Of a stretch of DNA of 64,000 bases, positions 4,400 to 63,860 are shown one piece after another. Position 1 is the stretch's first letter; each line of letters starts with the position of its first letter. Location of the stretch: the NCBI GenBank assembly GCA_963805625.1, contig CAWDVE010000019.1, positions 1-64,000 on the forward strand, read 5' to 3'. Below the pieces are notes generated by a model. It worked only from the letters and a program-made list of their open reading frames with translations. It did no database searches and was not told the DNA's origin. The DNA comes from an uncultured Candidatus Rokubacteria bacterium. Lineage in GTDB: Bacteria; Methylomirabilota; Methylomirabilia; Rokubacteriales; DASRDR01. The translations under genes were made by a program, and so were the position numbers.

Positions 4400-5005
4400 A
4401 TGCGAGGTGCTAGCACGCACTGGACGCTGGTCTTCACGGTGGCCAGTCTGGAGCACCTGGCAGAACGCAATGTCGAGGCAACGGATGTTACAAGCGCGGT
4501 GTACGGCTGGAACGGCCCTGCACGGATACGCCGCGGAGGTCGCGGGGCCCAGGAGCGCTGGTTCGTGGTCGCGCCGCTGGAGAGCGGCGAGCTCCTGACG
4601 TGCGTGTTTCGGGCAGCGCGGCCGCGGGATCTGGACTCGGAGGGGGCATTCGTCGTCTCAAAGACAGGACGCCAACAACCTCCAGGCCAGTTCGATTCAT
4701 CGATGCGCCTCTGCGTCAGCGCTCGGATGTCCGACGAGGACGAGGCAAGGAGCTATCGCCGGTGGCGAAGAGGCAAGGGAGGGAGCTGGTGGGGACGGTT
4801 GCGGCAAACAAGGGTAGGATTCCAGCTTTCCGAAGCGACCAAGAAGAGCGTGCCTTCTGGGCGCGTCACAGCCTGGAGGAGTTCGCAAAGGACTTGGTGG
4901 ATCTCGACGTCGAGATCCGTCCTCCGCGCACGGAACAGATCGCGCTACGCCTATATAAAGAGGACCTCCAAGCCCTCCGCTCTCTTGCGGCGAAGCGCGG
5001 CGTAG
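4400..5005 (+). CDS. BrnT-like toxin; the native stop near 4787-4789 appears lost
   Basis: EHLAERNV...RWFVVAP...LLTCVF...VSARMSDEDEARSY pattern, directly upstream of an antitoxin-like ORF. Confidence 0.55.
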   Translation: MRGASTHWTLVFTVASLEHLAERNVEATDVTSAVYGWNGPARIRRGGRGAQERWFVVAPLESGELLTCVFRAARPRDLDSEGAFVVSKTGRQQPPGQFDSSMRLCVSARMSDEDEARSYRRWRRGKGGSWWGRLRQTRVGFQLSEATKKSVPSGRVTAWRSSQRTWWISTSRSVLRARNRSRYAYIKRTSKPSALLRRSAA

Positions 5006-5106
5006 GACATACAACGTTGGCGAGAACGGTCCTCGAGGGATGGCTTGCGCGTTCGCGGGGCAAGACCGAACGATCTGGTCGCACGAAGGCTCGCCGACCA
5101 GCCTGA
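4789..5106 (+). CDS. CopG/BrnA-like antitoxin
   Basis: IPAFRSDQEERAFWARHS followed by RHH-like IALRLYKEDLQALRSLAAKRGVGHTTLAR; GGAGGGAG RBS upstream. Confidence 0.75.
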   Translation: MGTVAANKGRIPAFRSDQEERAFWARHSLEEFAKDLVDLDVEIRPPRTEQIALRLYKEDLQALRSLAAKRGVGHTTLARTVLEGWLARSRGKTERSGRTKARRPA

Positions 5107-5227
5107 CCTCTGTTCAGTGTGGCCGCACCGACTCTCATGGCCGTCGGCGGCTGGATGAGCAAGAGGGATGATGCGTCGCCACGAGGCGGTTTGCCGTGGC
5201 TCGAGCCGTGCCCAGTTCGAGAGACCG

Positions 5228-5248
5228 TGGCAACCGCCGGTGGCAACC
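5228..5248 (+). repeat. Tandem TGGCAACC pair, copy 2
   Basis: TGGCAACC at 5228 and 5241, about 40 bp before a tRNA half. Confidence 0.65.
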
Positions 5249-5287
5249 GCGCGGTAAGTCTGCGTCACTGCAGGCCATGTCACAACC

Positions 5288-5325
5288 CTCTCAAGGCCAA
5301 AGCGCGGGTTCGAATCCCGTTGGCT
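5288..5325 (+). other. 3' half of tRNA-Glu(CTC), att-like remnant
   Basis: CT-CTC-AA anticodon loop, GGCCA, then T-arm GCGGG-TTCGAAT-CCCGT. No D-arm, 5' half or CCA. Confidence 0.65.
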
Positions 5326-5342
5326 CGTGTGGGGAATACAAG

Positions 5343-5579
5343 ATGCCCTCGATCCTCGTGCGGGGTCTCGACCCGAAGACCATCCGGCGTCTGAAGGAGC
5401 GGGCCCGTCTCAATGGGCGCTCACTCCAGCAGGAGATCAAGGAGATCCTTGAGCGCGCGACGGGCATGCTCACCATGAACGAGGCGCGACGGTTGTCAGA
5501 GAGGTGGAGGCACCGATTCGGCGGTCGATCGTTCTCCGACAGCGTGCGATTGATCCGCGAGGATCGCGATTCACGATGA
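5343..5579 (+). CDS. FitA-like ribbon-helix-helix antitoxin (orphan)
   Basis: MPSILVRGLDPKTIRRLKERARLNGRSLQQEIKEIL...DSVRLIREDRDSR; no PIN toxin follows. Confidence 0.8.
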   Translation: MPSILVRGLDPKTIRRLKERARLNGRSLQQEIKEILERATGMLTMNEARRLSERWRHRFGGRSFSDSVRLIREDRDSR

Positions 5580-54136: not shown

Positions 54137-55067
54137 TCACCGCGACCGTACCCGTGGCCCGATCTGCGGGACCGGGCGCGCCTGGGCGGCCGCCGCGAAG
54201 ATCTCCATGAACGCGCGGGCGGCGGCGCTCAGCCGGCGTCGCGCGTGGTGGATCAGGTGGAAGTGCCGCACGATCCGGAGGCCGCGGACCCGGAGCGGCC
54301 GCAACCGGCCCGTCGCCCGCTCCCCCTGGATGGCGTAGACGGACACGAACGCCACGCCGAGCCCGGCCAGCACGCCCTGCTTGATCGCCTCGGTGTGCGG
54401 CAGCACCATGCCCGGGCGGTAGGCCACCCCGGCGCCGGCGAGCGCCCGCTCGGTCACCTGGCGGGTCGCCGAGCCAGGCTCCCGCAGCAGAAGCGGTTGG
54501 CCCGCCAGCTCGGCCGGACGGATGTCACGGCGGCGGGCCCACGCATGCGTCGGGCCGACGACGAGCACGAGCTCATCCTCCACGCGGGCCGCCAGGCTCG
54601 CCTCGGCCGGACTCGTCTCGCCGTCGCCGACCACCCCGAGGTCGAGCCCGCCCGCCCGCACCAGCGCCTCGATCTGCGCGGAGTTCCCGAGCTGCAGGGC
54701 CACCTCGATCGCGGGGTAGCGCTGCCGGAAGGCGCCGAGCACCCCGGGCACGACGTAGATCCCCGGGGTCGTGCTCGCCCCGATGGCCAGCGTACCCCGC
54801 TGCAGCCCCTGAAGATCGGCGATGGCGTGCCGGGCGTCCGTGAGCGTGGCGAACAGACGGGTCGCATGGTCCTCGAGGATTCGGCCGGCCTCCGTCAGGT
54901 GGACGACCCGGCCGAGGCGGTCGAAGAGGCGGGCGCCCAGCGCGCCCTCGAGCTCCCGGACGTGCTGGGAGAGGGGCTGGCTGGCTCAGATGGAGCGTCT
55001 CGGCGGCGTGCCGGAAGCTCCGGGCCCGGGCGACGGCCAGGAAGGCTTCGAATTGCCGCAGCGTCAT
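54137..55067 (-). pseudogene. CysL-like LysR regulator with a +1 frameshift
   Basis: MTLRQFEAF HTH; LSQPA/LSQHVRELE is broken in a C4 run at 54973-54976; IGASTTPG, REPGSATR; length 931 = 3n+1. Confidence 0.85.
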
Positions 55068-55210
55068 GGTTCGGGTTTCCCTTATCGAACCGATCTGAAT
55101 ATCCGATTGGACCTTATCGCACTGCCTCGCCGACAGTGCAAGGGCGGGGCGCTCCCGGGTGGGCGTCCCTTCGAGCCCCGGCGCCGCGGCCATCAGCGAG
55201 GAGGTCCACG

Positions 55211-55942
55211 ATGATCTTCCAGCAGTTCCTGTATCCCCAGACCGGGTGCGCCGCCTACGTCTTCGGGTGAGTGAGCCATGGGTCGTCTACGGTCGTAGAC
55301 CCACACGCCGACGACCTCGAGCGCTACCTGGAGTTCGCCGCCCTCAAGGGCACCAAGATCACGCACGTCCTCGACACGCACATCCAGGCGGACCATCGGT
55401 CGGGAGGCCGTGAACTCGCGGCCCGCACGGGCGCCGCCTACTGTCTCCACGAGGCTGCGGACGTGGCGTTCCCGTTCACGCCGCTCGCCGATGGCCAGGA
55501 GCTCGTCTGCGGGAACGTCGTGATCCGCGTGCTCCACACGCCCGGCCATACGCCCGAGAGCCTCTGTCTCGTCGTCACCGACAAGACGCGCGGGCCGGAG
55601 CCGTGGTTCGTGCTAACGGGCGACACGCTCTTCGTCGGCGCCGTCGGGCGGCCGGACCTCTCCGGCGCGGCCGAGGCGAGCGCCCGGGCGCTCCATCGGA
55701 GCCTCCGGCGGCTCCTCACCCTGCCAGACCACACCGAGATCTACCCGACCCACTTCTCGGGCGCCGCGTGCGGGAAGGGGATGAGCGGCAAGCCCATGTC
55801 CACGCTGGCCTTCGAGAAGCGGTTCAACCCGTTCCTGGGGATGGCGGGCGAGGACGAGTTCGTCGCGGCCCTGACGCGAGACCTTCCCCCGATGCCCGCG
55901 GACATGGCGGCCACGCTCCGCGCCAACCAGGGCCGCGCGTGA
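55211..55942 (+). CDS. MBL-fold persulfide dioxygenase-like protein, candidate selenoprotein (TGA at codon 20)
   Basis: GAGG RBS; MIFQQFLYPQTGCAAYVFG-TGA-VSHGSSTVVDP in one frame; THIQADH, TPGHTPES, GDTLF, GRPDL. Confidence 0.8.
55271..55306 (+). promoter_or_regulatory. Bacterial SECIS-like hairpin
   Basis: GTCTAC-GGTC-GTAGAC stem-loop extended by TGG/CCA and GTG/CAC; the G-initiated loop begins 20 nt after the TGA. Confidence 0.7.
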
Positions 55943-56024
55943 CCGGCAGGCCGCCCCGGCGCGGCCGGCCGACCGGCGCGCCGGGGCGGGGCTGCGCCGG
56001 GCCAGGCTCCGCGAGGCGCCCCGG

Positions 56025-57284
56025 GTGAGTTCCGCGGCCGGAGCGGGCGCCATCCGGCTGGGGCTGGGGGCGAACCTCGGCCAGTTCTCGCTCCTCGTCT
56101 TGATCAATGCCTTCGTCGGGGCGATGGTCGGCCTGGAGCGCACCGTGGTCCCGCTCATCGGCGAGCGGGAGTTCGGCCTCACGTCGAAGACCGCGATCGT
56201 CTCGTTCATCGTGAGCTTCGGCGTGACCAAGGCGCTGCTGAACCTGGTGGCGGCCCGCCTGGCGGAGCGGTTCGGGCGGAAGCCGATCCTAGTGGCGGGG
56301 TGGCTGCTCGGCCTTCCGGTGCCCTTCATGATCATGTGGGCGCCGTCCTGGGGCTGGATCGACGCCGCCAACGTCCTGCTCGGCGCGAACCAGGCCTTCG
56401 CGTGGTCCATGACGGTGATCATGAAGGTCGACTTGGTCGGACCGCAGCGGCGGGGGCTCGCCCTCGGCCTCAACGAGTTCGCCGGGTACCTGTCCGTGGC
56501 CCTGTCGGCGTGGGCCACCGGGGAGATCGCCAGCCGCTACTCGCTCCGGCCCGAGCCCTTCTACTACGGCGGGATTGTCGCCGTCCTGGGACTCGGATTG
56601 TCGGCGCTGTTCGTTCGGGAGACGCGCGATCACGTCGCGCTCGAGATCGCGCAGAACGCGCCTCGGCACGGCCCGGTCGGGCCTGCGCTCTCCTTCAAGC
56701 GCGCGTTCGCCGTCACGACCTGGCGCGACCGGAACCTCGCCGCCGCGTGCCAGGCGGGGCTCGTCAACAACCTGAACGACGGGATGTCCTGGGGGATCTA
56801 CCCGCTCTTCTTCGGGAGCTACGGCCTCGGCGTCGCGGCGATCGGCGTCATCAAGGCCGTATACCCGGGAGTCTGGGGCGCGCTGCAGGTCATCACGGGA
56901 CCGCTCAGCGACCGGATCGGCCGCAAGGGGCTGATCGCCGGGGGGATGCTCGTCCAGGCCGGAGGCATCTGGCTCACGGTCCTGATGCCAGCCTATCCGT
57001 CGTGGATCGCGGGCGCCGTCCTCCAGGGGCTCGGGACGGCGATGGTCTACCCGACCCTGCTCGCGGTCATCGGGGACGTCGCGCACCCCTCGTGGCGCGC
57101 GACCAGCTACGGCGTCTACCGATTGTGGCGGGACCTCGGCTATGCGGTGGGTGCGCTTCTTGCGGGACTCATCGCCGACTGGCTGGGCATGGCCGCGGCG
57201 ATCCACGTCGTGGCCATGCTCACCCTACTGTCGGGCCTCGTCGTCCTCGTCCGCATGCGGGAGACCCTGGGCGGTCTTCGGTGA
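56025..57284 (+). CDS. MFS transporter
   Basis: About 12 TM helices; ARLAERFGRK and GPLSDRIGRK motif A; GVYRLWRD. Confidence 0.92.
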   Translation: MSSAAGAGAIRLGLGANLGQFSLLVLINAFVGAMVGLERTVVPLIGEREFGLTSKTAIVSFIVSFGVTKALLNLVAARLAERFGRKPILVAGWLLGLPVPFMIMWAPSWGWIDAANVLLGANQAFAWSMTVIMKVDLVGPQRRGLALGLNEFAGYLSVALSAWATGEIASRYSLRPEPFYYGGIVAVLGLGLSALFVRETRDHVALEIAQNAPRHGPVGPALSFKRAFAVTTWRDRNLAAACQAGLVNNLNDGMSWGIYPLFFGSYGLGVAAIGVIKAVYPGVWGALQVITGPLSDRIGRKGLIAGGMLVQAGGIWLTVLMPAYPSWIAGAVLQGLGTAMVYPTLLAVIGDVAHPSWRATSYGVYRLWRDLGYAVGALLAGLIADWLGMAAAIHVVAMLTLLSGLVVLVRMRETLGGLR

Positions 57285-57374: not shown

Positions 57375-57638
57375 ATGACAGATGGCGCCGAGAAGATGAT
57401 CGCCCGCGCCCCACTCCACTACTCGGGGTCGGCCGACGGCTACGCGGAGTACTGGAGTCCGGTCATTCGCCCCCTCGCCCGACGGTTGCTCGATGCGCTG
57501 CCGTGGGATCGAGCAGGCCGGATCCTCGACGTCGGCACGGGGACGGGCGCGCTCATCCCCGACATCCTCGGCCTCGCGCCAACGGCCCGCGTCGTCGGGA
57601 TCGACCCGTTGCGGAACCGGTGTCAAGGTCCGCGGTGA
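57375..57638 (+). pseudogene. Class I SAM methyltransferase N-terminal remnant
   Basis: ILDVGTGTG, VVGID, then truncated. Confidence 0.7.
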
Positions 57639-58441
57639 TGCTCATGCTCGCCTCCTATCTCGCCGAGAACACGCGGCCTACGTATGAGCGCCTCGCGACA
57701 TGGCTCACCGCGCGCCTCGGCGAGCCCGCGTCCCTGCTCGGCGGCGTGGCTTGGGAGGAGCGTGTGGCGATGCTGGACGACGGGCGGGTGCACGTCGCAT
57801 TTATCTGCGGCTGGTCGTACATCCAACGCCACGACCGGCCGGCGCGGCCGGTCGACCTCTTGTGCGCGCCAGTCATGGCCCCGCCCCGGTATGAGGACCG
57901 GCCGATCTACTTCACGGACGTGGTCGTCCGCTACGACAGCCCCCTGTGGTCTTTCGCGGATCTCCGGGGTCAGCGCTACGCGTACAACGACCGCAGCTCG
58001 CACTCCGGCTACAACGTCCCCAGAGATTACCTGCTCCGGGTCGGTGAGACCCGCGGCTACTTCGGTCGCGCGGTCGCCTCGGGGTCTCACCAGACCTCGA
58101 TCCGGATGGTCGAAGCGGGCGAGGTCGACGCCTCGGGGATCGACAGCACGATGCTGGACGTCGAGCGCCAGCGGCGTCCCGACGTGAGCACGACGCTGCG
58201 CACCGTGGCCGTCCTCGGGCCATCGCCGATTCGGCCGATCATCGTGACCCGTGCACTCCCCGAGAATCAGAGAGAGCGGCTCCGCGCCGCACTCCTCACG
58301 ATGCACGAGGATGCCGAGGGTCGCGCGATCCTGGGCGACGGACTGATCGCCCGCTTCGTCCGCGTGCAGGACGCCGACTACGACCCGATCCGCGCGATGG
58401 TCGCCCGGGCGGTCGAGGTCGGCTTCATGGAGCTACGGTGA
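57638..58441 (+). CDS. PhnD-like phosphate/phosphonate-binding protein
   Basis: AFICG, DLRG..AYND..SHSGY, SGSH, IDS, DYDPIR; no signal peptide. Confidence 0.85.
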   Translation: MLMLASYLAENTRPTYERLATWLTARLGEPASLLGGVAWEERVAMLDDGRVHVAFICGWSYIQRHDRPARPVDLLCAPVMAPPRYEDRPIYFTDVVVRYDSPLWSFADLRGQRYAYNDRSSHSGYNVPRDYLLRVGETRGYFGRAVASGSHQTSIRMVEAGEVDASGIDSTMLDVERQRRPDVSTTLRTVAVLGPSPIRPIIVTRALPENQRERLRAALLTMHEDAEGRAILGDGLIARFVRVQDADYDPIRAMVARAVEVGFMELR

Positions 58442-58697
58442 CCCGCGCGGGCCGGACGCCGGCTCATCGGGTCGCGTCCCAGCACCTGAAGGAGATGAAT
58501 CACTCGCTTGAGCCCATGGCACCGCACCTGTCAAGATGTTGGCCGCGTTCATGGGCGAAGAGGAGAGGCTGACGACACTGAACGCGAAGTATATGAACCG
58601 CCATCGGCGGCGTGCCATCGCCTCGTGTCGACGCCCATTGACGCTTCTCGCGCGCCCGGCGTAGAGTCTCGCTACCGTGACACTGGGGGGCTCAGCC

Positions 58698-59718
58698 GTG
58701 ACAAGGCGTGGCCGCGGGCCCGGCAGTCGTCGTCCCTTCTGGTGGTGCGGCGTCGCACTGGTCGCGTTGCTCACCGGCCCGGCGCCGCCCGGTCGAAGCG
58801 CCGTCGCGGCCGAGCGCACTGGATCCGTCAAGATCGGGGCACTGACGCAATCTTGGGGTGCGACACCCGAGATGGTCGGCCTCCGTGACGGGCTGGTGGC
58901 GCTGGGATATCGAGAGGGCGAGCAGTTCGTCATCGGCGTCCGGTTCACGCAAGGGGACATCGCCGCGCTTCCGGCGGCGGCCCACGACCTGGTCCAGTCC
59001 GGGGTGGACCTCATTTTCGCCATCGATGTGACCGCGGCGAGGGCGGCGCAGCTGGCAACCAACCGGATTCCGATCGTCGTCGGCCTCCTTCGTGGGCGAT
59101 CCGGTCGAACTGGGGCTCGTCCAGAGCTACGCTCGGCCCGGCGGCAATATCACCGGTGTCCTCCATGAGGACACCGACTTGAGCGCGAAGCGCCTGGAAA
59201 TCTTCAAGGAGATGCTGTCGGGCCTGAAGCGCGTCCTGTTCCCCTATGATCCAAACGATACGGACGCGGCGGCGGCCGCACGCCTGTACCGCGCCGCCGC
59301 CCGGCAGCTCGGCCTCGTTCTCGTCGAGAAGCCCGTGCGGACCGAGGAGGAGGCGCGGACGACCCTCGCAAAGCTCCGGAAGGGCGAGGTGGATGGGATC
59401 ATCGCCCCGTCGAACCTGTCGCTGAACATTCCCGGCGTCGTCCTGGACGCCACGTCGCAGCGCGCCATCCCGACCATGTTCACCGGAGCGTTCTACGTCG
59501 AGCGCGGCGGGCTGGTCAGCTACGGTCCAGATTTCTACGAATCGGGCCGCCAGGCGGCCCGCCTGATGGACAAGATCGTCAAAGGCGAGAATCCGGGGCG
59601 GATCCCGGTCGAGGCGAACCCGAAGATGGAGCTGGCGATCAACATGAAGGTCGCGAGGGCCCTGAAGCTCACGATCTCGCCAGCGGTCTCGCAGCGCGCC
59701 AACCGGCTCATCGAGTGA
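58698..59718 (+). pseudogene. ABC substrate-binding protein (Trp/Tyr type), frameshifted paralog
   Basis: Similar throughout to 59824-60837; frame changes near 59075-59095 between PIV and VGDPVELG. Confidence 0.8.
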
Positions 59719-59823: not shown

Positions 59824-60837
59824 TTGATCGCGGCGTCCGCTAGAGCGCTGCGCCCTCGCTGGCAGTGCGGGCTGGCCCTCCTTTGGCTGTTCGCGGGCAC
59901 CGCCTTCGACGGCCGGAGCGTGGACGCGGCCGAGCGCACGGGACCTGTCAAGATCGGGGCCCTGACGCATTCCTGGGGTGTGACACCCCAGATGGTTGGC
60001 CTCCGGGACGGCCTCCTCGCGCTGGGCTACCGAGAGGGCGAGCAGTTTGTCATCGGCGTCAGGTTCACGCAAGGGGACGCGAGCCTCCTTCCCGAGGCGG
60101 CCCAGGGCCTGATCCAGGACGGGGCAGACATTCTTTTCCCCACGGACGCGAACTCGGCGAGGGCGGCCCAGAAGGCCACGACCCGGGTCCCCATCGTCTT
60201 TGCCGCAGTCGTGGGCGACCCCGTCGAGTTGGGGCTCGTGCGGAGCTTTGCCCGGCCAGGGGGCAACGTCACCGGGGTGACCGACGGCGACCTCGAGCTG
60301 AACCCAAAGCGCCTGGAGATCTTCAAGGACCTGATTCCGGGCTTGAAGCGCGTGCTGCTTTGCTACGATCCAAGCGATCCGCACGCGGCAGCGGCCGCGC
60401 GTGCGTACCGCGACGGGGCCCGTCAACTCGGCGTGGTGCTCGTGGAGAAGCCGGTACGGACCGAGGCGGAGGCGCGAGCGACCCTCGCCAGGCTCCGGAA
60501 GGCCGAGGTCGACGGGATCCTCACCCCGCCGACGACCTCGCTGAACATCCCTGGCGTCGTGCTGGAAGCCACGGCGGAGCGCAGGCTCCCGGCGATGTTC
60601 AACGCCGCGTTCATGGTCGAGCGCGGCGGCCTCGTGAGCTACGGCCCGGACTGGTACGAAACGGGCCGCCAGGCCGCGCGCCTGGTCGACAAGATCGTGA
60701 AAGGTGAGGATCCCGGACAGATCCCGGTGGAGGTGAACCCGAAGGTCGAGCTCGCGATCAACATGAAGACGGCCAAGGCGTTGAGACTCTTGATTCCACC
60801 CAGTGTCCTGCAGCGTGCCAACCGGCTCATCGAATAA
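59824..60837 (+). CDS. ABC substrate-binding protein (Trp/Tyr type)
   Basis: GDPVELGLVRSFARPGGNVTG, GGLVSYGP, INMKTAKAL; start uncertain. Confidence 0.9.
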   Translation: MIAASARALRPRWQCGLALLWLFAGTAFDGRSVDAAERTGPVKIGALTHSWGVTPQMVGLRDGLLALGYREGEQFVIGVRFTQGDASLLPEAAQGLIQDGADILFPTDANSARAAQKATTRVPIVFAAVVGDPVELGLVRSFARPGGNVTGVTDGDLELNPKRLEIFKDLIPGLKRVLLCYDPSDPHAAAAARAYRDGARQLGVVLVEKPVRTEAEARATLARLRKAEVDGILTPPTTSLNIPGVVLEATAERRLPAMFNAAFMVERGGLVSYGPDWYETGRQAARLVDKIVKGEDPGQIPVEVNPKVELAINMKTAKALRLLIPPSVLQRANRLIE

Positions 60838-60861
60838 CGGCCCGGTGGAGAGGAGGATGTG

Positions 60862-61422
60862 ATGAACGCTAGGACGCGAGCGAGAACATCGGTGCTTATC
60901 GGCGCACTGCTGGTCGCTGCACTCGGTGGAGGGGGCGCCGGCGTGGCGACCGCGCTGGAGATCGGCAAGCCGGCGCCCGACTTCACGCTCCCGAGCACGA
61001 CCGGCGAGAAGATCAGCCTGAGTCAGTACCGGGGCAAGCTGGTCCTCCTCGAGTTCTATGGCGCTGCGTTCGTTCCCACCTGAGCGGATAACCTGTCGGC
61101 CAGGAAGGCCGACTACAGCAAGTTCAACGAGCTGGGTGTCCAGATCCTCGGCATCAGCTCCGACAACCCCTTCGCCCAGAAGACCTTCGCCGATTCCCTG
61201 AAGCTGGCGTTCCCGCTCCTCAGCGACTGGCCCGACCTGAAGGTCATCCGGAGCTACGGGATCCTGGGCGCGAGCAACATGATGGCCAGTCGGTCGTTCT
61301 TCCTGGTGGATCAGCAGGGGATCGTCCGGCAACAGTGGCTGCTCGGCGCCGCTGGGGGCACCACCGTCATGCCCAGCGAGCCGATCCTCAAGGCGGTGCA
61401 GGAGCTCAAGGGCAAGCCGTAA
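60862..61422 (+). CDS. Exported AhpC/TSA peroxiredoxin-like protein, candidate selenoprotein (TGA at codon 74)
   Basis: IGKPAPDFTL...EFYGAAFVPT-TGA-ADNL...GISSD...FPLLSD...RSFFLVDQQG, open to TAA 61420-61422; no Cys codon. Confidence 0.88.
61093..61118 (+). promoter_or_regulatory. Bacterial SECIS-like hairpin
   Basis: GTCGGCC-AGGAA-GGCCGAC perfect 7-bp stem; the loop begins 18 nt after the TGA. Confidence 0.75.
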
Positions 61423-61424
61423 GG

Positions 61425-61988
61425 GTGGACGTGCGCCCGGGGCCTCGCGGGGTTCTGGCGGGCCTCCTCGCCTCTCTGACCCTGGTGGCGCCGCCGGCGG
61501 TCGGCCAGTCCGCCGGCGCGCTCCAGCGGCTCGGTCTCGCGGGGTATCCTCCTGACACGCGGCCTCCAGGATTCAGTGGCGCGACGGTGGACGGCTTCCC
61601 GCTGTCGCTGGAGAGCTTGCGGAGCCGTGTCGTCCTGCTGAATTTCTGGGCCAGCTGGTGCCTCGAGTGCCGTGCTGAGCTGCCGGTCCTCGAGCAGCTT
61701 CACCGCGATTACACTCCGCGGGGTCTCACGGTCGTCGCGGTGAACTTCCGGGACGAGCCTGGGACTGTTCGGCAGTACGCTCGCGAGCTCGGTCTCACGA
61801 TGCCGCTCGTCCTGGACTCTGCCGGCGCCATCAGGCAATCGTACGGGGTGATCGGGTTTCCGACCAGCTTCCTGGTCGCGCGGGACGGACGGGCCGTGGC
61901 CCGAGCGATCGGCCCGCGGGAGTGGGCCGGCCCCGAGGCCCGTGCGCTCATCCAGTCGCTGCTGATGGAGCCGACCGGACGCCGCTGA
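61425..61988 (+). CDS. TlpA-family thiol-disulfide reductase
   Basis: Signal/TM segment, LNFWASWCLECRAELP, GFPTSF, GPREW. Confidence 0.9.
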   Translation: MDVRPGPRGVLAGLLASLTLVAPPAVGQSAGALQRLGLAGYPPDTRPPGFSGATVDGFPLSLESLRSRVVLLNFWASWCLECRAELPVLEQLHRDYTPRGLTVVAVNFRDEPGTVRQYARELGLTMPLVLDSAGAIRQSYGVIGFPTSFLVARDGRAVARAIGPREWAGPEARALIQSLLMEPTGRR

Positions 61989-62607: not shown

Positions 62608-63222
62608 ATGCGCCATAGGGGCAACGAGGGTTATACCGAGGAAGCGGACGCGCTCACGAGACAGTACGAGAGCGTTCGTTTCGCCGACGTGCACGGCCCG
62701 GTCTTGCATCTGCTCCCGACCGTGCCCAGCTCTGTGCTCGACATCGGGGCCGGGACCGGACGCGATGCCGCGGCCCTGGTCGGGATGGGGCATCGAGTGG
62801 TGGCGGTGGAACCCACCGCGGCCCTCCGCGATCGGGCGGCCCTCTTACATCCGTCCTCCCACATTGAATGGATCGACGATTCCCTTCCGCACCTCGCACG
62901 CCTCATGAGACGCGGGGACCGGTTCGACGTCGTGATGCTCACCGCCGTCTGGATCCATCTCGACCCGCAGCAACGTCGGGAGGCGATGCCGAGAGTCGCC
63001 AGTCTCCTCCGCCCAGGCGGTGTCCTGCTGCTGACGCTTCGTCATGGCCCTGCCCCGCCCGGCCGACGCCGCCTCTTTGAGACGTCGGCGGATGAAACGA
63101 TCGCCCTGGCCGGCGTCCACGGCTTGCACGTCGCCCTGAAGGTCGAACACCAACCAGATTTCTACGGCCGCCGGGAGATAACGTGGACTTCCCTCGCCTT
63201 TCTCAGCGAGAGGTCAACCTGA
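62608..63222 (+). CDS. Class I SAM-dependent methyltransferase
   Basis: VLDIGAGTGRDA, DDSLP, LLRPGG, LRHGP. Confidence 0.88.
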   Translation: MRHRGNEGYTEEADALTRQYESVRFADVHGPVLHLLPTVPSSVLDIGAGTGRDAAALVGMGHRVVAVEPTAALRDRAALLHPSSHIEWIDDSLPHLARLMRRGDRFDVVMLTAVWIHLDPQQRREAMPRVASLLRPGGVLLLTLRHGPAPPGRRRLFETSADETIALAGVHGLHVALKVEHQPDFYGRREITWTSLAFLSERST

Positions 63223-63257
63223 CGGGCCGGTCCCAGGCTTCGGGTAGCCTTCGATCC

Positions 63258-63860
63258 ATGGACGAATGTTGCGCGGTCAGAGACGTTCCGCGCGAGCAAC
63301 GGCGCGTGCTCTACGCGGTCCTGTGGATCAACGCCGCCATGTTTCTGGCTGAATCACTCGGCGGGCTCATGGCCCACTCGACGGCATTGGTCGCTGATTC
63401 CGTCGACATGCTCGGCGACGCCATCGTATACGGATTCAGCCTCTACGTGATCCATCGGGGCACCACCTGGAAAGCGCGAGCCGCATTGCTCAAAGGCATC
63501 ATCATGGCGGCCTTCGGGATCGGTGTGCTCATCCAGGTGGCCGTGAAGATCGTTCAAGGCCTCACCCCGACCGTCGAAGTCATGGGCGCGATCGGCGCCC
63601 TGGCATTTGCCGCGAATCTCTTTTGCCTGGTGCTCCTACGGCGACGCCGTGACGACGATATCAACATGCGGTCGGCGTGGGTCTGCTCACGCAACGACGT
63701 GATCGGCAACGCGGCGGTCCTCGCGGCCGCTGCCTTGGTGGCCGTGACGAGGTCGGCATGGCCGGACATCCTCATCGGGCTGCTCATCGCTGGGGTCTTC
63801 GGCCGCTCGGCAGTCCAGATTATCCGCGAGGCGTCGCGCGCGGTTGTTCTGTCAGCCTGA
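63258..63860 (+). CDS. Short CDF-type cation transporter
   Basis: MDECC, ADSVDMLGD, NMRSAWVCSRND; 5-6 TM helices. Confidence 0.88.
   Translation: MDECCAVRDVPREQRRVLYAVLWINAAMFLAESLGGLMAHSTALVADSVDMLGDAIVYGFSLYVIHRGTTWKARAALLKGIIMAAFGIGVLIQVAVKIVQGLTPTVEVMGAIGALAFAANLFCLVLLRRRRDDDINMRSAWVCSRNDVIGNAAVLAAAALVAVTRSAWPDILIGLLIAGVFGRSAVQIIREASRAVVLSA

Follow-up and report, generated by a model that had tools for sequence, protein, structure and literature searches.

A predicted exported selenoprotein with a peroxiredoxin fold and its two dedicated gene partners: a possible redox switch in the cell envelope of Rokubacteria

A stretch of 64,000 nucleotides from an uncultured Candidatus Rokubacteria bacterium (assembly GCA_963805625.1, contig CAWDVE010000019.1, positions 1-64,000 of the forward strand; hereafter the window) carries a gene for a peroxiredoxin-fold protein with a predicted selenocysteine (Sec). 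The gene stands between those of a solute-binding protein (SBP) of family PF04392 and a TlpA/ResA-like thioredoxin. We suggest, at a probability of about 0.38, that this three-gene module provides the cell envelope with a selenium-based redox switch, the peroxiredoxin-fold protein being reset by TlpA and signalling via the SBP. The broader proposal that the selenoprotein functions together with the SBP, whether as such a switch or as a reductase acting on the SBP's small molecule, is probable. Below, L-numbers denote loci and G-numbers genomes; the source genome is G000, and the window lies on its contig C19 (G000:C19:1-64000).

A recurrent module of three genes

All features of the module lie on the forward strand. 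The selenoprotein gene runs from an ATG at 60862 to a TAA at 61420-61422 (186 aa) and is preceded, at a distance of 5 nt, by a Shine-Dalgarno AGGAGG (60851-60856, read from the sequence). Ahead of it is the core partner, a dedicated orphan SBP gene (59824-60837; PF04392, E 2.8e-48) with the signatures GALTxSWGPTP...GLRDGL and SLNIPG. Behind it is the dedicated TlpA gene (61425-61988), which can start with a GTG 2 bp past the TAA; its product has a signal-like N-terminus, as judged by eye, and the motif WCLEC (CLEC at 61659-61670). A first tandem copy of the SBP gene (58677-59718), broken in the assembly by a frameshift near 59079-59083, was recovered by tblastn in two parts that share 69% and 73% identity with the second copy. 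At this site related-strain contigs from run X2 lack one base, and X1 is without that deletion.

Neighbours were sought in 59 longer loci, 56 of which hold the selenoprotein. The SBP is found beside 51 of the 56, ahead of TlpA at 45. Across the phylum, 44 of 47 SBP matches are within 2 kb of a family gene, and 33 of 36 TlpA matches within 1 kb. The 34 genomes with the module SBP all fall among the 38 with the selenoprotein, and the 32 with the module TlpA all have the selenoprotein too, although these genomes are related to each other and the counts are not independent events. Module orthologues of the SBP show about 50-91% identity, whereas the other source-genome paralogues listed do not exceed 43%. 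CxxC is present in all 51 extracted TlpA neighbours. As a control, 17 other redoxin genes of the source genome were considered, none of which is less than 8 kb from any of the 41 PF04392 genes. Gene order varies (the selenoprotein and TlpA genes may precede or follow the SBP), and a second selenoprotein copy in the source genome (contig C11, 73% identical) has the SBP without TlpA. To judge from this linkage, the co-inheritance of three dedicated subfamilies shows a shared function. A sequence-only reading of this stretch had coupled the selenoprotein to the adjacent TlpA. The gene linkage and the position of the TlpA start stand, but the SBP, which that reading missed, is the more constant partner of the two.

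What might the SBP bind? Its model resembles Trp/Phe/Tyr binders (3lft, TM 0.84), and it shares fold and Pfam family with the aromatic-amino-acid ABC binding proteins TrpX, 3lft, 3lkv and CD0873. It differs from TrpX-type binders, however, in being 24-28% identical, in scoring below the TrpX cut-off (model NF041285, 142 bits against 390) and in having no permease found alongside. The ATP, TDP, ExN and DNT motifs common to 3lft and 3lkv have changed in the SBP, and it therefore probably binds another ligand. Neither a permease nor a ccdA gene was found near the module in the 59 loci with the single tblastn query used for each. The source genome has one CcdA-sized PF02683 gene, located elsewhere. 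By coordinate lists, only one of the 41 source-genome PF04392 genes (C19:91447) is less than 1 kb from a PF02653 permease, three adjoin dCache_1 sensors, and the rest look orphan.

Sensor kinases adjoin the module in a minority of loci. In the SBP tree the module clade (support 0.99) is sister (0.94) to two source-genome SBPs that directly precede dCache_1 sensors. Kinases with dCache_1 flank six of the 56 family loci, and dCache sensor genes follow three of eight Binatia-class matches. Co-oriented dCache_1 sensor genes flank L071, L074, L086, L242, L249, L273, L274 and L275; a kinase domain was seen in the first six of these, and dCache_1/HisKA Pfam matches were confirmed in L071, L074 and L086. 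In L273 (G490:C33:29000-47000) eight SBPs (66-84% identical) and four selenoproteins, all co-oriented and without TlpA, lie between two histidine kinases. Two of these selenoproteins have an extra loop segment that contains two Cys (CxxxxxxC), one of the SBPs is interrupted by a stop, and the array also harbours an inserted MazEF-like pair (about 4700-5400).

A complex of SBP and peroxiredoxin-fold protein was predicted for the natural Cys pair of L070 and scored 0.57, against 0.00 for the best of three controls; at least 97% of contacts are shared between runs, and the partners have a pLDDT of 84 or more. Of the calibration pairs, 116 of 157 solved and 2 of 215 mismatched ones reached the mark. 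Passes at or below 0.60 comprise only 18 solved pairs and both mismatches. As the score falls in this zone, it offers weak support for direct binding of the selenoprotein to the SBP.

The selenocysteine codon and the altered active site

The gene has a single in-frame TGA, at residue 74 (61081-61083), followed by 112 open codons, and has no Cys codon. Alignment with the solved peroxiredoxin 2ywn places the predicted Sec74, in the motif FYGAAFVPT-U-ADNLSARK, at the peroxidatic Cys; G67 takes the place of the active-site Pro, V71 that of Thr, and R144 (SRSFFLVD; 61291-61293) that of the catalytic Arg, which is present in 119 of 121 aligned rows.

Does the TGA specify Sec? At the DNA level the family was defined by Asn at +3, which gave 69 distinct loci after 28 rows were dropped as TlpA or outgroup. 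The column codon is TGA in 66 of these, TGT or TGC in three and TGG in none. In the phylum search, 50 of 251 genomes match the selenoprotein at E<=1e-28, and all 53 matches at E<=1e-40 carry one TGA. A short-read contig from run X1, possibly of the same sample as the assembly, spans 60993-61527 with no differences and confirms the codon. Among 120 protein-database matches the column is Cys in 80, Trp in 37, Asp in two and Ser in one, in databases that under-count Sec forms. A genetic code with TGA as Trp was considered and rejected, as TGG occurs at none of the 69 DNA loci and the source genome uses TGA as a normal stop. Given the lack of TGG, and given that 13 of the 37 Trp-bearing matches have flanks identical to a TGA locus, the Trp rows are read as gene-caller read-through.

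A hairpin follows at 61095-61113 (GUCGGCC/AGGAA/GGCCGAC) and has the properties of a bacterial Sec insertion sequence (SECIS): a 7-bp stem, a 5-nt loop (AGGAA) that begins 18 nt past the UGA, and a folding energy of -14.2 kcal/mol. These values agree with all of the rules set out in Fig. 2 of PMC13188914 (a loop of 3-9 nt with a G among its first two nucleotides, a stem of 4-16 bp, a distance of 16-37 nt to the UGA and a minimum free energy at or below -7.5). In 60 distinct rows of the family, pairing within the stem amounts to 91%, and four of the seven pairs show changes on both sides; the covariation score was matched by one of 500 shuffles, a control that ignores relatedness. The rare Arg codon AGG is present at the SECIS loop in 64 of 66 loci, whereas it makes up 47 of the 466 other Arg codons of these genes. 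Stability of the hairpin alone, measured against shuffles, is a weak signal and not significant (z -1.5 to -2.8). The hairpin is kept in some Cys forms and therefore does not separate Sec from Cys members. The Cys-codon orthologues L070, L072 and L082 retain AGG at the loop, L072 with an identical hairpin, and their genomes have selA, which suggests recent Sec-to-Cys changes. An order-level search around the Cys-form genome G253 returned only G253 itself (1 of 121).

The source genome has selA, selD and tRNA-Sec (selC) above cut-offs, and selD itself contains a TGA. In its selB a C/G homopolymer (L004:1485; G000:C21, about 224981) carries a one-base frameshift that divides the gene. An X1 short-read contig, otherwise identical over 417 bases, has the extra base, so the frameshift looks like an assembly error, and the idea of a broken Sec machinery was set aside. 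Could the gene be a pseudogene, its TGA either a genuine stop or an error of sequencing? The assembly does have indel errors elsewhere, selB being a case in point. Against this stand the TGA in 66 of 69 loci over several lineages, the intact Cys orthologues, the covarying SECIS and the complete Sec machinery, and with the X1 contig these lead us to reject the pseudogene on computational grounds as hardly credible. The UGA is thus predicted to encode Sec, as had been proposed from the sequence alone. The source genome may be rich in such proteins: of its 20 redoxin-like matches, 10 carry a TGA in frame at the active site, which points to a large selenoproteome of thioredoxin-fold proteins. Deng et al., in 2026, reportedly described a Methylomirabilota metagenome-assembled genome with 63 selenoprotein genes.

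The protein matches PF00578 (E 1.7e-34), and its AlphaFold2 model (pLDDT 87) has a peroxiredoxin fold in which U74 starts a helix (72-83). The best Foldseek structures are Bcp4 (3hjp) and AhpE (1xvw), with TM about 0.9 by target length, rmsd 1.5-1.6 Å and 32-33% identity. No NCBIfam model reached its cut-off; the PrxU model NF040737 gave 75 bits against 270, and the motif is VxxU in place of TxxU. The ESM Atlas returned only generic peroxiredoxin clusters. In a midpoint-rooted FastTree phylogeny (318 sequences, 125 columns) the family forms a clade of 89 with support 0.95, its sister group being poorly resolved. The residue at +3 is Asn in 120 of 121 rows; most of the outgroup peroxiredoxins carry Glu at this position.

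Of the two motif changes, only one is distinctive. Thr or Ser occupies the Thr site in 18 of 86 scored clade members, against 202 of 212 sequences outside. The active-site Pro is found in none of 117 Cys- or Trp-form matches and none of the 69 DNA loci, yet it is also absent from 50 of the 212 outside the clade, and Pro loss was therefore dropped as a defining trait in favour of Thr/Ser loss. Is selenium a compensation for the lost Thr? Thr or Ser is kept in 19 of 66 Sec loci (Ser in 17) and in 21 of 80 Cys database matches. As 59 of the 80 Cys forms also lack it, a compensation confined to Sec is not required. Thr73 was likewise rejected as a replacement hydroxyl, because canonical motifs with Thr/Ser at -3 may have a Thr at -1 as well. 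The source-genome protein has the peroxiredoxin fold, the predicted peroxidatic Sec and the Arg, with Gly for Pro and Val for Thr/Ser in the PxxxT/SxxC motif; on this account it is called peroxiredoxin-like and is not classed as a peroxiredoxin.

A signal peptide is predicted at 60862-60954 by a hydrophobicity heuristic (basic n-region, hydrophobic h-region, cleavage between VATA and LE). Of 56 family rows scored with the same heuristic, 55 have a hydrophobic 10-mer in the leader and all have Ala at -1, and the protein is accordingly predicted to be exported. Its mature part is Cys-free, hence without a resolving Cys, in 55 of 57 scored Sec loci; nine rows unmatched by the pattern were dropped from the leader and Cys scoring. 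Much of the sequence-only reading is borne out by these results: the peroxidatic TGA and the 112 codons after it, the Arg, the lack of Cys, the perfect 7-bp hairpin, the signal-like N-terminus and a distinct subfamily without a resolving Cys all hold, the Sec genes (selA, selB, selC, selD) are present, and by its homologues the TGA is not unique to this assembly. Its view that loss of Pro and Thr together marks the subfamily survives for Thr only, the tie of the odd motif to Sec forms fails, and its word peroxiredoxin is apt for fold, Sec and Arg and not for the Pro and Thr/Ser motif.

The family is mostly of Rokubacteria/Methylomirabilota, with further records labelled Binatia, Deltaproteobacteria, Eisenbacteria and others; it was found in 6 of 251 genomes of the Binatia-labelled class. 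Candidatus Rokubacteria is also the label of the closest titled relatives, which share 87% and 81% identity with the gene. Loci L039, L052, L057, L061 and L158 hold a paralogous subtype with an active-site loop one residue shorter (FYVGESPT-U), in four cases in tandem with the usual form. In L087, L088, L090 and L092 (Binatia/Deltaproteobacteria-labelled) there is a sister Sec group, FYxxDFxPx-U, that lacks the invariant Asn and the module SBP. The source genome also has a second signal-bearing, Thr-less Sec peroxiredoxin-like gene (G000:C4:168000-168991; L017, L020; FIGAFNGP-U), with a Sec TlpA (WTTW-U-PDC) directly after it; no PF04392 gene was found on that contig.

Possible roles of the module

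How might a redox switch of this kind work? An oxidant would convert the single Sec74 to a selenenic form, and TlpA, which by gene linkage may be taken to recycle the selenoprotein, would reduce it again by way of a short-lived Se-S bond, drawing electrons from the CcdA-type protein whose gene lies elsewhere in the genome. The redox state of the selenoprotein would gate the SBP, which would likely signal through a dCache_1 histidine kinase; in the source genome this would require a kinase from another locus. Slow peroxide chemistry may be inferred for the selenoprotein from the behaviour of Thr mutants. In the kinetic data of PMC5024103, the rate constant of yeast Tsa1 with H2O2 falls from 4.7e7 to 3.8e4 M-1 s-1 in T44A, about 1000-fold, and T44V, with the residue that the source-genome protein has at this site, reacted too slowly for measurement. 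That the family is so constantly paired with an SBP that has no transporter, and sometimes with a Cache kinase, points to extracytoplasmic redox sensing. The full chain, in which a peroxiredoxin-derived selenium switch gates an orphan SBP that acts on a dCache_1 kinase, with TlpA for reset, would constitute a kind of periplasmic redox sensor of which we found no description, and is put forward tentatively.

Several points weigh against the switch. Co-inheritance, here among related genomes, says nothing on the direction of information flow. An adjacent kinase is absent from the window and from most loci, and the rate at which a dCache sensor is near the family (6 of 56 loci) is not far above that for source-genome PF04392 genes (3 of 41). 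No conserved Cys for a redox relay was found in the SBP, so coupling would have to be conformational, and a complex prediction that passes at 0.57 is more often wrong than right unless the pair was likely beforehand. Ser, kept in 17 of 66 Sec loci, may leave some members competent peroxidases. In the coupled assay given in PMC5024103, moreover, turnover by Tsa1 T44A persists (8.8e3 vs 2.0e4 M-1 s-1).

Alternatively, the selenoprotein could be an exported reductase specialised for the small molecule of the SBP, either as substrate or as product, e.g. a bulky hydroperoxide, sulfoxide, persulfide or haloamine; the SBP would capture or present the molecule and might report it to a kinase, and TlpA would give electrons. 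The same linkage of SBP, TlpA and selenoprotein speaks for this, and the weak complex prediction fits it equally well. Turnover is suggested by the dedicated TlpA, with its CxxC, at 45 of 56 loci, and another ligand by the altered pocket of an aromatic-amino-acid-type binder; loss of Thr with retention of Arg would suit a changed substrate. Still, no conserved neighbour beyond the SBP, TlpA and kinases/cyclases was found that names a substrate, and the L273 array and several Binatia-class loci have kinases and no TlpA. On balance this role is somewhat unlikely. An ordinary envelope peroxide scavenger, on the lines of Caulobacter PprX with TlpA, in which selenium offsets the lost Thr and the SBP is a co-regulated passenger, is unlikely; the sequence-only reading came near to this view. 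The fold, the position of U74 at the helix start, the retained Arg and the predominance of Sec at the DNA level (66 of 69) are what one would expect of it, as are the dedicated TlpA and the CcdA-type gene, and a ScsB-TlpA-PprX pathway is experimentally shown in PMC3322552. Yet Cys forms lack Thr/Ser just as often, so that Sec need not compensate, and the source genome already has canonical TxxC/TxxU peroxiredoxins. The SBP, too, has a tighter linkage than TlpA and, beside kinases, is amplified together with the selenoprotein. Very improbable is a mostly non-catalytic subunit whose selenolate binds a metal or electrophile (e.g. a soft metal ion), its state being read by the SBP and a kinase. 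A lone exposed Sec or Cys in a degraded peroxide pocket, and a column that is Asp in two database matches and Ser in one, would suit such a binder, but Arg and a CxxC reductase partner are conserved, and no metal-resistance genes recur among the neighbours.

Surroundings, known systems and significance

Genes flanking the module in the window code for a phosphonate-type binding protein (57503-58441), an S-adenosylmethionine (SAM) methyltransferase (62608-63222) and a cation-efflux membrane domain (63183-63860); they are not conserved as module neighbours, save the methyltransferase in L067. Further upstream (54137-57284) are a LysR regulator in two apparently frameshifted ORFs, a metallo-beta-lactamase-fold hydrolase and a transporter of the MFS type, and a similar trio precedes the module in the same-genus locus L068 only. 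A promoter and terminator scan gave chance level only. The RNA runs X15 and X16 yielded short contigs only, mostly from relatives, that have no bearing on expression.

Periplasmic binding proteins that feed a membrane kinase with a Cache-type sensor are exemplified by LuxP-LuxQ and TorT-TorS. Here, in contrast, the binding protein is accompanied by a selenoprotein and a thioredoxin, and a kinase is adjacent in only a minority of loci. To our knowledge, few redox sensors are known outside the cytoplasm.

Already known are Sec peroxiredoxins with TxxU (PMC13188914) and the envelope peroxiredoxin-TlpA pathway (PMC3322552). The module resembles the ScsB-TlpA-PprX system of Caulobacter crescentus, as presented in the latter, in a peroxiredoxin-fold protein with a predicted signal, a TlpA as putative envelope reductant and a candidate DsbD/CcdA-class electron source in the genome. 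PprX, however, has the full PxxxTxxC, a resolving Cys and a peroxidatic Cys, compared with GxxxVxxU, no resolving Cys and a dedicated SBP for the selenoprotein, and in place of ScsB the source genome has only the CcdA-sized PF02683 gene as candidate donor. PrxU-type proteins (NF040737; Table 1 of PMC13188914) share PF00578, Sec at the peroxidatic position and a SECIS in the coding region; the selenoprotein differs in reaching 75 of 270 bits, in lacking TxxU and in its predicted export. None of the AhpC/TSA-type Sec rows in that Table (TxxU, UxxC/UxxU, UxxS), nor Prx-SUH (CxxU), gives the motif GxxxVxxU. AhpE, the 1-Cys protein of Mycobacterium, and BCP/PrxQ are the best structural matches and keep the Arg, and AhpE too has one redox residue; these proteins retain Pro and Thr/Ser and most have Glu at +3, whereas the family has an invariant Asn and a clade of its own. 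AhpE is reduced via mycothiol/mycoredoxin, according to PMC8113037. No description of the three-gene module was found in the literature searched, though family members may already be listed as generic peroxiredoxin selenoproteins; a search of the main text of the deep-Sep paper (PMC12013277) gave no matches to peroxiredoxin terms.

The motif PxxxT/SxxC is described in PMC3322552 as absolutely conserved in peroxiredoxins. A widespread natural clade without the Thr, in Sec and Cys forms and with the Arg kept, offers a direct test of the role of this Thr, and the natural Sec/Cys and Ser/Ala/Val variants can be used to ask whether selenium replaces it. The module is hidden in current annotation because gene callers split the Sec forms or read Trp. 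L070, with natural Cys orthologues and all three genes, makes the module testable without Sec expression. If the switch proposed here is real, it would also assign a function to some of the many orphan PF04392 proteins that have arisen by expansion in these uncultured bacteria.

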